A program made the translations under genes and the position numbers. The notes below the pieces were generated by a model that saw only the letters and a list, made by a program, of their open reading frames with translations, was not told where the DNA came from and made no database searches. 64,000 nt of DNA, from contig CAZWVU010000002.1 in the NCBI GenBank assembly GCA_964637575.1, positions 18,824-82,823 on the forward strand, given 5' to 3'. Every line of letters begins with the position of its first letter. The stretch's first letter is position 1. Shown here piece by piece: positions 5,092 through 55,323 of this stretch. The DNA comes from an uncultured Candidatus Saccharibacteria bacterium (GTDB lineage Bacteria > Patescibacteriota > Minisyncoccia > UBA6257 > WO2-44-18).

Positions 5092-5120
5092 TTGACACTA
5101 AAGCTACTTCTTATATACAA
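5092..5120 (+). promoter_or_regulatory. candidate promoter for tuf (TTGACA -35, TATACA/ATACAA -10)
   Basis: TTGACA at 5092-5097, A/T-rich -10 candidates 16-17 nt downstream; follows terminator and structured region, 65 nt upstream of tuf. Confidence 0.35.
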
Positions 5121-16442: not shown

Positions 16443-16564
16443 GTTGGTTTTGTGTCGGTTGCGCTTTTGACCAGCTCCTCCTTCTCCTCGGCAGGACGTC
16501 GGGCTACAATCCTGCCTGTGGGAAAGAGGAGCTGGCCTTAACTTAACCCTTTCACAAAACCAAC
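16443..16564 (+). repeat. structured repeat family 1, copy 1 (core 16471-16535), nested in a 12-bp outer inverted repeat
   Basis: GTTGGTTTTGTG...CCAGCTCCTC-CTTCTCCTCGGCAGGACGTCGGGCTACAATCCTGCCTGTGGGAAAGA-GAGGAGCTGG...CACAAAACCAAC; begins 1 nt after secY stop. Confidence 0.8.
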
Positions 16565-29106: not shown

Positions 29107-29183
29107 TATGATGGAAAATGCGAGGTTGCGTGTTTTGAGGGAATATCTCGGAGCTTTCTTCTTTTAAAAATAAGAGCGAAGTT

Positions 29184-29243
29184 TTCTGCTTCTTCCCGCA
29201 GACAGGATTGTAGCCCGACGTCCTGTCGAGGAGAAGAACAGAA
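29184..29243 (-). repeat. structured repeat family 1, copy 2 (reverse orientation)
   Basis: reverse complement reads TTCTGTTCTTC-TCCTCGACAGGACGTCGGGCTACAATCCTGTCTGCGGGAAG-AAGCAGAA; between convergent GNAT and ychF genes. Confidence 0.8.
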
Positions 29244-29256
29244 GACGAGCGAATCC

Positions 29257-46409: not shown

Positions 46410-47138
46410 TTACAACTTGTATTCTTTCCGCCAAAGCCACCAGCGGATTTTCACCGTTTCGGCAAGCACCTGCAGATACGCCCTGGAGGATACGTGCGTG
46501 CGGGCATCGTTTACCCAGTGCACCGGCATTTCTTTCACTTCATAGCCAAGCGCCCGGGCGAGCGCCAGCGCTTCGATATCAAAGCCCCACCGGTTGATTT
46601 TTACCAGAGGAAACACGCGCTCGGCGGCCTCTTCCGAAAAACATTTAAAACCGCACTGGCTGTCTTTGATGCCCCGTAACGCCATAAGTTGTATGAAAAT
46701 ATTTCCCGCCCGTCCCATTATGCGCTTCTGGATCGGCTGGGGTGGATTCATTTTCGCGCCCTTCACGTACCGCGATCCGATCACCACTTCGTATCCCTGA
46801 TCGAGATAGGGCATCATTTTATTGAATTCGACGATCGTGGTGGAATTATCCGCGTCCATAAACACCCGCCAGTTGCCCTTGGCGGCGAGCATTCCCTGCC
46901 GCACCACCGCGCCTTTGCCGCGGTTTTCTTTATTATCGATCAGTTTCAGATTTTCAATCAGCGGCCGGAAACGGTTGACAATCTCAGCGGTGGCGTCGGT
47001 CGAGCCGTCGTTCACGACGATAATTTCATAGGAATACTCCTGCTGGGAAAGATGCTTGTCCACGTCGATCAGAGTCAACGGAAGACGCTTGGCTTCGTTA
47101 TAGGCGGGTATTATTACGGAGAGATACGGCTTGGCCAT
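46410..47138 (-). CDS. family 2 glycosyltransferase, polyprenyl-phosphate sugar synthase (DPM1/GtrB-like)
   Basis: 242 aa; LSVIIPAYNEAKRL, VVNDGSTD, DADNS motifs. Confidence 0.8.
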   Translation of the reverse strand: MAKPYLSVIIPAYNEAKRLPLTLIDVDKHLSQQEYSYEIIVVNDGSTDATAEIVNRFRPLIENLKLIDNKENRGKGAVVRQGMLAAKGNWRVFMDADNSTTIVEFNKMMPYLDQGYEVVIGSRYVKGAKMNPPQPIQKRIMGRAGNIFIQLMALRGIKDSQCGFKCFSEEAAERVFPLVKINRWGFDIEALALARALGYEVKEMPVHWVNDARTHVSSRAYLQVLAETVKIRWWLWRKEYKL

Positions 47139-47176
47139 CTATTAAAAGTATAGCATTTGATTCCTTTTCTTTTTTA

Positions 47177-47243
47177 GCCAGTGCCTTCTTCTCCTCGCCA
47201 GGACGTCGGGCTACAATCCTGTCTGCGGGAAGAAGGCACTGGC
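47177..47243 (+). repeat. structured repeat family 1, copy 3
   Basis: GCCAGTGCCTTCTTC-TCCTCGCCAGGACGTCGGGCTACAATCCTGTCTGCGG-GAAGAAGGCACTGGC (15-bp perfect outer stem). Confidence 0.8.
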
Positions 47244-47566
47244 TTCACGACAAGACTATTTTGCAAACGTAATCTTGGGAGGTTACGGGTTGAAGCAGCG
47301 CGGTTGGTATTTAAAAAAGCCCCGGCAGGGTGTTCCGGACACCGCAGGGATTTCCCCGCGCAGCCCAGAACCCCAACCGGAGCGTAATATGTTTTTTACT
47401 ACTTTTAATCGTACCACAAAAAATCCCCTCCGCGGGCTACGAAGCCGCACGGAGGGTGTGAACGAGGTCTTGAAAAACTATCCCGAAGTAAGAGCCGAAA
47501 GCGCTTGTTCAAGGACGACCTTTGTCTCTTACTTCGGTGCGGAAAATATACCTAAATTTTTTATTA

Positions 47567-47608
47567 TTGTCAAGGATTCTTGACAAATAACTGCACGCAA
47601 GCTATATT
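47567..47608 (+). promoter_or_regulatory. near-consensus sigma70 promoter (TTGACA-17-TATATT) overlapped by perfect palindrome TTGTCAAG-GATT-CTTGACAA
   Basis: -35 TTGACA 47580-47585 is the right half of the 8-4-8 palindrome 47567-47586; -10 TATATT 47603-47608. Confidence 0.6.
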
Positions 47609-47614
47609 GTGGAG

Positions 47615-47808
47615 GCACTTTGATCGCTGGCCGCCGGCTTCCCGCCGCTACGGCCGGATACTCTGACTGCGGTCTGACGACCGCGCTCGCGCTAAGCCCC
47701 TCGCCCTCGGCTACGCGCGCTCTACGTTCTACGGGCGTTGCCGCTTCGGGTTGTTGACCCGCTGGCGGTAAAATTTCAAGCCCCGGGTGCGCACCCGGGG
47801 CTTTTTTA
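47615..47808 (+). ncRNA. candidate small non-coding RNA (~190 nt) between promoter and terminator, no credible ORF
   Basis: GC-rich, multiple internal hairpins (gcggtc-tgac-gaccgc etc.), CCGCCGGC near 5' end pairs with GCUGGCGG near 3' end; bounded by promoter above and terminator 47780-47810; only a 48-codon TTG-initiated low-complexity ORF possible. Confidence 0.35.
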
Positions 47809-47810
47809 TT
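47780..47810 (+). terminator. rho-independent terminator
   Basis: gccccgggtgcgcacccggggc + TTTTTTATTT. Confidence 0.75.
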
Positions 47811-48135
47811 TGCTGAAGATCAAGCTCTCTAATCCATTGGCGATCGCGTGGAACATCCAGACAAAAATACTTCCCACGCCTTTGAAAAGAATAAGCAGTA
47901 CGGACCAGATCGCATCGAGGAAGGTGCTGATCGGCTTGCCGGCTCCGGGAAGATTACTGCTGATAGTCTGGCTGTTCGATCCGAAATTAAAATCCTGCAG
48001 CATATTGAAGAAATTTTTCACCGGCGCCGGAATTACCGACCGGAGCTCCTGCAAGGTTGGAAGTGCCGCAAACGCGCGTGCGCCCAAGGCGAGCGTCCCG
48101 ATTAAAATACATGCCAGAATCAGATGTCGTTTCAC
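47806..48135 (-). CDS. hypothetical small secreted/membrane protein
   Basis: 109 aa; N-terminal signal peptide LILACILIGTLALGARAFA; 21 nt downstream of the M23 peptidase gene. Confidence 0.5.
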   Translation of the reverse strand: MKRHLILACILIGTLALGARAFAALPTLQELRSVIPAPVKNFFNMLQDFNFGSNSQTISSNLPGAGKPISTFLDAIWSVLLILFKGVGSIFVWMFHAIANGLESLIFSK

Positions 48136-55100: not shown

Positions 55101-55196
55101 CTTACTAAAAGTATATCATACGGCTTGCCTGTCCCGGCCGCCGCCAACCTCTCGTCGGACTCGGACATCCGGGAATTTCCTCGGGCTGACTCGCCC

Positions 55197-55255
55197 CTGC
55201 CTCCTTCTCCTCGCCAGGACGTCGGGCTACAATCCTGCCTGCGGGAAGGAGGCAG
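55197..55255 (+). repeat. structured repeat family 1, copy 4
   Basis: CTGCCTCCTTC-TCCTCGCCAGGACGTCGGGCTACAATCCTGCCTGCGG-GAAGGAGGCAG. Confidence 0.8.
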
Positions 55256-55323
55256 GAGCTTCCAACTTTTCTAACCGCGGAATTTCTTTGGTTACCTCGC
55301 TGGATTTCTTTCTGTCATTGCGA

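Follow-up and report, generated by a model that had tools for sequence, protein, structure and literature searches.

Small RNAs of the enterobacterial type that act in trans, such as RybB, OmrA/B and MicA, carry a conserved 5′ seed. Those of the DapZ and MicL type are embedded in a 3′ UTR and have their own promoter. 6S RNA (RF00013 and relatives) folds as a rod with a closing stem, a central bubble and a terminal stem. Back-to-back divergent promoters form another described arrangement, and many well-studied pairs share a regulator site.

Within the 64-kb stretch of DNA analysed here (the window), an earlier note had singled out an orphan promoter-to-terminator unit without ORF as a candidate small RNA under operator control. 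We call this unit RNA-A, and RNA-B the minus-strand hairpin RNA beside it. Like RybB, OmrA/B and MicA, RNA-A is a stand-alone promoter-to-terminator unit of 100–200 nt without ORF, conserved at its extreme 5′ end and in a terminator-proximal 3′ module on either side of a variable middle, with an A/U-rich single-stranded stretch adjoining the terminator. It differs from them in having no sequence or Rfam relationship to them, in its host, which belongs to the Patescibacteria, and in being far more GC-rich and structured than typical seed sRNAs. With 6S RNA it shares its size in the window (∼195 nt), a strong promoter and a high degree of structure; it differs by a multi-branched fold, by members ranging from ∼125 to ∼225 nt and by the absence of any covariance-model match.

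We propose, with a probability of roughly 70%, that positions 47580–47809 of the plus strand constitute an autonomous gene for a non-coding RNA of ∼195 nt, representing an undescribed family so far encountered in a narrow clade of Harrisonbacteria/Paceibacteria-like Patescibacteria. As far as sequence comparison can tell, RNA-A has the attributes of a generic stand-alone bacterial sRNA gene: its own conserved promoter and terminator, no conserved ORF, and compensatory structure on the transcribed strand. The candidate sRNA of the earlier note is thereby supported, by the conserved promoter, +1 motif and 3′ structure and by the lack of conservation of the ORF. The qualifier ‘orphan’ is not, since RNA-A is one of several unclassified RNA genes in a small non-coding island, and two further genomes carry homologues.

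Transcription signals and predicted fold of RNA-A

All genes near the locus (LysRS, GreA, a glycosyltransferase, a 109-aa ORF, an M23 peptidase, GluRS and MurG) are on the minus strand. RNA-A lies in the 670-bp gap between the glycosyltransferase gene and the 109-aa ORF (Table 1). The textbook sigma-70 promoter and the strong intrinsic terminator read there previously are both present. Promoter-like sites matching 11 of 12 consensus bases are rare: four were observed in 64 kb, where 0.23 would be expected on the basis of Markov simulation, and the RNA-A locus accounts for two of them.

Table 1. Features of the RNA-A locus (positions in the window)
Feature	Positions	Strand	Remarks
Family-2 glycosyltransferase gene	46410..47138	-	PF00535; flanks the RNA island
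Repeated structured (REP-like) element	47173..47246	+	interval between island and glycosyltransferase gene; outside RNA-A and island
Long hairpin plus T6 closing the RNA island	47312..47383	-	fold z = -7.0; last 14 nt (CCGGGGCTTTTTTA) identical to end of RNA-A terminator
RNA-B	47420..47538	-	hairpin stem 47483-47494 / 47526-47537; own terminator 47444-47428 plus T6
RNA-B promoter, divergent	47545..47573	-	-35 TTGACA 47573-47568; -10 TATATT 47550-47545; 11/12 match
8-4-8 palindrome TTGTCAAG-GATT-CTTGACAA	47567..47586	.	two back-to-back -35 boxes (CTTGACAA twice), 6 bp apart
RNA-A promoter	47580..47608	+	sigma-70; -35 TTGACA 47580-47585; 17-nt spacer; -10 TATATT 47603-47608; 11/12 match
Predicted transcription start and 5′-terminal motif GCACUUUG	47615..47622	+	begins at 7th nt after -10
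RNA-A, predicted transcript of ∼195 nt	47615..47809	+	limits from promoter and terminator
Hairpin H1 (GGCCG...CGGCC)	47627..47657	+	fold; hairpin starting GGyCG at equivalent place in single-sequence MFE folds of L083 and L085
Variable GC-rich central region	47658..47737	+	fold; three local hairpins in the window genome
Conserved 3′ module: stem P3 (UUGCCGC/GCGGUAA) around hairpin Pi (CGGG-UUGUUGA-CCCG)	47738..47771	+	three-genome comparison
Terminator hairpin with GCGC loop, plus T-run	47778..47809	+	arms AAGCCCCGGGTGC/GCACCCGGGGCTT at 47778-47803, 11 pairs, then TTTTTTATTT
Gene of 109-aa small conserved, probably membrane protein	47806..48135	-	homologues 3′ of M23 peptidase gene in six genomes

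The interval between these signals is GC-rich (0.69 at 47625–47774, compared to ∼0.5 in the flanks) and full of local hairpins, as had been noticed before; a 198-nt transcript has a minimum free energy (MFE) of −91.2 kcal/mol, with z = −3.6 against shuffles. The 5′-terminal octamer is unpaired or weakly paired in MFE folds. An end-to-end stem (CCGCCGGC/GCUGGCGG) suggested for the same interval was not borne out: the GCGG tract pairs locally with UUGCCGC at 47738–47744, and this local stem is kept in all three genomes compared. On the minus strand, where its tail is TTGAAATTTT, the terminator begins 3 nt past the end of the 109-aa gene (stop codon), and it is therefore probably bidirectional and common to both strands.

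Homologues and conserved structure

A blastn and nhmmer search with RNA-A gave no match in 80 related loci fetched with the glycosyltransferase as anchor. Homologues were found through synteny with the M23 peptidase, in contigs fetched because they carry homologues of this protein (57–63% identical), and they belong to two other Patescibacteria genomes, L083 and L085/L086. In both, TTGACA-17-TATATT is followed by six bases and then GCACTTTG, with the same spacing as in the window. The +1 motif (GCACTTTG/GCACUUUG) is invariant in the three genomes and sequence 3′ of it diverges. Similarity returns in the 3′ module, (U)GCCGC-NN-hairpin with UUGU loop-NNN-GCGGY-AARUUU-SAG, followed by a GC hairpin whose loop is GCGC, and then a T-run. 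The central region between these ends is unalignable and its length goes from ∼14 nt in L083 to ∼80 nt in the window and ∼120 nt in L085. Conservation in related genomes, which the earlier note had proposed to look for, is thus seen for the promoter, the +1 motif and the structured 3′ module.

Compensatory double changes were observed at 5 of the 11 terminator pairs, where all 31 of 31 cells of the comparison are paired and the GCGC loop is invariant, and at 2 of the 6 pairs of hairpin Pi. These seven pairs are a qualitative result, because the covariation rests on the three clear members (a fourth, in L003, is doubtful) and is beyond statistical testing. G-U wobbles occur at two positions of the 3′ module (G47740-U47769 in the window, U-G in L085); on the opposite strand they would be A-C mismatches, which identifies the plus strand as the transcribed one. 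A covariance model of the 3′ module scored the three known members at 80–99 bits, with L083 and L085/L086 at 88–99 bits, and gave nothing else credible over 0.9 Mb of related DNA. RNA-A is missing at the equivalent position in the close relatives L004 and L084 and in ∼80 other related loci; it is therefore either dispensable there or located elsewhere.

The conservation could in part reflect functions at the DNA level, for the terminator as for the promoter. A metagenome scan with the pattern TTGACA-N17-TATAWT-N6-GCACTTTG returned 72 loci, all unrelated (Firmicutes tRNA/rRNA promoters, hrcA promoters and GEMM-I-type riboswitches), and no new member of the family. In unrelated bacteria GCACTTTG at +1 is also found behind strong promoters of tRNA and rRNA genes, so that its conservation could partly be a matter of promoter function: the 5′ octamer might be maintained because it is an initial-transcribed promoter element and not because it is an RNA seed. 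In the same scan, CPR-like promoters were seen to drive GEMM-I-type riboswitches starting with GCACUUUG, at L101:1333–1442 (above the Rfam threshold for c-di-GMP-I-GGC) and L134:5571–5800 (below it).

At the position of RNA-A, the unit L003:330–452(+) combines a promoter with perfect consensus (TTGACA-17-TATAAT), an RNA of ∼75 nt and a terminator. The RNA is possibly pseudoknotted, as its GCCAGC loop could base-pair with GCUGGC further downstream. This unit is recognised neither by nhmmer nor by the covariance model of the 3′ module, and may, doubtfully, be a short relative of RNA-A.

Orientation of the RNA-A cassette

In L083 and L085, RNA-A, the protein genes and RNA-B all point in one direction (likewise in L003, provided that the short analogue there is a relative). 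In L083 and L085 RNA-A is found directly 3′ of the M23-peptidase/small-protein operon, with its promoter adjoining the small-protein stop codon and no intervening terminator; it thus occupies the 3′ end of the operon and supplies the operon terminator, as in the DapZ/MicL type. The window differs in that RNA-A is inverted, independent and convergent with the operon, only the terminator hairpin being shared. The genes for the M23 peptidase, the small protein and the glycosyltransferase occupy the minus strand of the window but the plus strand of the L083 and L085 loci; RNA-A is on the plus strand in both cases, and the orientation of RNA-B is that of the protein genes in all genomes. The opposite orientation of RNA-A in the window, where relatives have it co-directional with protein genes and RNA-B, therefore indicates that the whole cassette was flipped, from promoter to terminator.

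Two junctions follow from this inversion. The RNA-A terminator now lies next to the small-protein stop codon and probably also ends the small-protein operon; at the other end, the RNA-A −35 box is brought to 6 bp from that of RNA-B, which creates the 8-4-8 palindrome as a by-product. An assembly error does not account for the arrangement, since an independent Logan assembly (L002) shows it identically, together with an identical RNA-A sequence. No convincing flanking inverted repeats that would explain the inversion were found. A direct repeat of 9 nt, TTTTTTATT, is located in the spacer of the RNA-B promoter and probably has no connection with the inversion.

RNA-B and the RNA island

RNA-B is predicted to start at ∼47538 on the minus strand, ∼77 bp from the start of RNA-A. 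It comprises a hairpin of ∼60 nt, or ∼120 nt with the terminator in the window (fold z = −4.4), under its own near-consensus promoter, with equivalents in L003, L004, L084 and L085. The perfect 12-bp inverted repeat that had been reported upstream of RNA-A is real, though placed a few bases away from its actual positions (Table 1); it is the stem of this conserved hairpin RNA. RNA-B is kept in all five genomes readable at this spot, the window, L003:487–562 and L004:4502–4575 (both detected by nhmmer), L084:2087–2160 and L085:5934–6004; the L083 contig ends before it. In the five-genome alignment the apical core AAAGGTCG..TTGAA..GCGC (as RNA, AAAGGUCG..UUGAA..GCGC) is invariant, and six pairs of the outer stem show compensatory changes. 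RNA-B has no Rfam match. Its AGGUC...AAGCGC resemblance to SRP RNA was considered and rejected, as neither the helix nor the loop predicted for RNA-B agrees with domain IV.

The island is closed on its far side by a long hairpin with a T-run on the minus strand. A perfect 14-nt inverted repeat (47312–47325 / 47795–47808: TAAAAAAGCCCCGG / CCGGGGCTTTTTTA) means that the outward-facing terminators at both island ends finish identically, either through recombination or merely because they are of a common type; a similar GGGGCTTTTTATTT terminator is found at the island end in relatives.

Relatives carry, 3′ of RNA-B, a further GC-rich region of ∼430 nt that we call RNA-C (L003:560–1040, L004:4575–4990; shorter in L084:2160–2500 and L085:6010–6170). 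Many compensatory changes distinguish the L003 and L004 versions, for example gaagtatccag/ctggatacttc versus gaaggattcgg/cgaattcttc, and RNA-C has no Rfam match even at permissive E-values. It is seemingly absent from the window, where the long terminator hairpin alone stands at that position.

Alternative explanations

The palindrome over the −35 box of RNA-A had been read as the operator of a dimeric HTH repressor, which would occlude the RNA-A promoter or both divergent promoters. It is indeed there and exact, and it is the single copy in the 64-kb window even when three mismatches are allowed (expected count 0.01); as it overlaps both −35 boxes, its geometry would permit co-repression of RNA-A and RNA-B. 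However, the earlier note did not include the second, minus-strand promoter, which is as strong as that of RNA-A, and the palindrome arms are merely the two −35 hexamers with one flanking base each. TTGACAA is already the usual extended −35 among the island promoters, and by our own estimate the two extra symmetric base pairs would arise by chance about once in 16. The pair of −35 hexamers on opposite strands thus explains the palindrome without a regulator, as in other back-to-back divergent promoters; unlike many well-studied pairs, this one gives no evidence of a shared regulator site. Operator control is further not supported by the homologues, none of which carries the palindrome at its RNA-A (L083, L085) or RNA-B promoter (L003, L004, L084, L085), and no regulator gene is adjacent, the neighbours being the glycosyltransferase and the small membrane protein. 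We therefore regard an operator-controlled sRNA as very improbable. The methodological caution to draw is that perfect symmetry around a −35 box need not signal an operator and can result from a pair of divergent promoters. The position of the terminator, 3 nt past a minus-strand stop codon, the inversion of the cassette here and the absence of the unit in L004 and L084 would also suit a rearrangement leftover without dedicated function, consisting of the terminator of the small-protein gene, a relic or mirror of the RNA-B promoter and a decaying GC-rich interval. This appears quite unlikely given that promoter, +1 motif and 3′ module are kept, with compensatory changes, between genomes whose M23 peptidases are just 57–63% identical, and that the inverted copy retains its 11/12 promoter and a perfect terminator.

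Another alternative is a small-protein gene. The earlier note had pointed to a TTG-initiated ORF of 48 codons; the ORF is real and its start is the TTG within the conserved GCACTTTG, but it encodes 45 aa (47620–47757). From the conserved TTG, the equivalent ORFs have 21 aa in L083 and 14 aa in L085, with unrelated sequences, and the differences in length of the central region are not multiples of three. No Shine-Dalgarno is present, because the TTG is 5 nt from the predicted transcript start, and the substitutions are compensatory for RNA stems. None of the other reading frames of RNA-A is conserved across the window, L083 and L085, and Pfam gave no match for the 45-aa ORF or for a 102-aa ORF at 47275–47583(+), which is antisense to RNA-B. 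That this ORF or another short frame is the gene product is hardly credible. A housekeeping RNA, 6S or SRP, diverged beyond the Rfam models would fit the very strong, stable-RNA-like promoter, the high GC content, the pattern of a variable interior between conserved ends that many structural RNAs show, and the poor representation of Patescibacteria RNAs in databases. We nevertheless judge it unlikely. At the gathering threshold, Rfam gave no relevant match in the window, 12 related loci and 6 further loci; at E ≤ 10 with relaxed filters over 47100–47900, there was no 6S or SRP match, be it with the 6S models (RF00013, RF01685 and others) for RNA-A or with bacterial small SRP RNA (RF00169). Neither L083 nor L085 has a 6S or SRP match, and Rfam in E-value mode returned nothing relevant for L003, L004, L083 and L084; a search for tRNA and tmRNA found none. 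The 6S-like character considered in the earlier note is hence not supported, and the comparison with Rfam models that it had proposed gave no match. The MFE and centroid structures are multi-branched local hairpins instead of the rod of 6S RNA, the L083 homologue has ∼125 nt, and the SRP domain IV motif (GNRA tetraloop, AGG/AGCA symmetric loop) is not visible by inspection in RNA-A or RNA-B. The absence of RNA-A at its position in most relatives, with no further homologue in 0.9 Mb of related DNA, also argues against a housekeeping RNA.

Possible mode of action

Under the preferred reading, an autonomous non-coding RNA gene, the near-consensus promoter would start RNA-A at GCACUUUG and the intrinsic terminator would end it, yielding what we infer to be a stable structured RNA of ∼195 nt; our best guess is that it acts in trans. 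The presumed functional parts are the 5′-terminal octamer with the first hairpin and the 3′ module, made of the GCCGC/GCGGY stem round the hairpin with the UUGU loop, the A/U-rich linker and the GC hairpin with its GCGC loop, while the GC-rich middle would be free to vary. In relatives the gene follows the M23-peptidase/small-protein operon in the same direction, the window cassette being the inverted form.

Conservation at the extreme 5′ end and next to the terminator, with a variable stretch in between, recalls base-pairing sRNAs of the seed type, and our preferred model, put forward tentatively, is that RNA-A pairs with targets via its single-stranded 5′ end. The main alternative is protein binding through the 3′ module. 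In contrast to RybB, OmrA/B and MicA, complementary target sites are not above chance in the 64 kb and short loci searched (4 CAAAGTGC sites in the window compared to 2 expected), and the DNA adjoining the homologues in L083 and L085 has no conserved site. An anti-Shine-Dalgarno role through C-rich loops (CUUCCC, CCUCGCCCUC) was dropped because these loops are not conserved in L083. It is also conceivable, though doubtful, that RNA-A is the scaffold of a ribonucleoprotein or a guide-like RNA, its ends serving as protein handles and its variable core providing specificity, within a Patescibacteria-specific island of structured RNA genes (RNA-A, RNA-B and RNA-C) without Rfam match.

Our search of the literature found no relevant work on small RNAs, regulatory or structural, of the Candidate Phyla Radiation (CPR). 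RNA-A, strongly promoted, conserved, without Rfam match and clustered with two unclassified RNAs, offers with them concrete candidates for metatranscriptomic and covariance-model surveys of reduced CPR genomes.

Flanking genes and REP-like elements

The glycosyltransferase is 73–85% identical to proteins in MAGs labelled Harrisonbacteria, Paceibacter or Parcubacteria. The 109-aa protein on the other side has no Pfam match, and a search of genome contigs with it gave nothing. At the start of the glycosyltransferase gene (47110–47140(−)), a TATACT −10 box lies ∼9–12 nt 5′ of the ATG and no Shine-Dalgarno is present, which suggests a leaderless or near-leaderless mRNA; at the equivalent start in L084 (2480–2516) the −10 box is TATAAT. 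The two 11/12 promoter-like sites of the window outside the RNA-A locus are at 5092(+) and 8752(+).

In the more distant relatives L159, L160–162, L163 and L164, the small-protein gene and the glycosyltransferase gene are not separated by any RNA island. In other related genomes, unrelated GC-rich non-coding islands with long hairpins separate the glycosyltransferase gene from the gene upstream, at about this position: L014:5240–5520 (with a 20-bp closing stem, CACCCACTCTTCCGGTTTTGT / ACAAAACCGGAAGAGGGTG), L016:5600–5740 and L017:5090–5250. Possibly this interval is a hotspot at which structured elements accumulate.

A REP-like element lies in the interval from the island to the glycosyltransferase gene (Table 1), and further copies of it occur in the window at 16466–16539(+), 55191–55262(+) and 29178–29246(−), and at L083:826–898(+). 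It consists of an invariant core of ∼45 nt (CTCCTCGCCAGGACGTCGGGCTACAATCCTGYCTGYGGGA) inside an outer stem of 8–12 bp, whose sequence is wholly different between copies with complementarity kept. It matched no Rfam family, and viral contigs contained no exact copy of it. Matches between this element and the RNA-A core are of 8–13 nt at most and, being so short, were treated as chance. The Logan contigs L001 and L002 both end inside the copy at 47173–47246. L083 has this core unchanged, with an M23 peptidase of just 63% identity.
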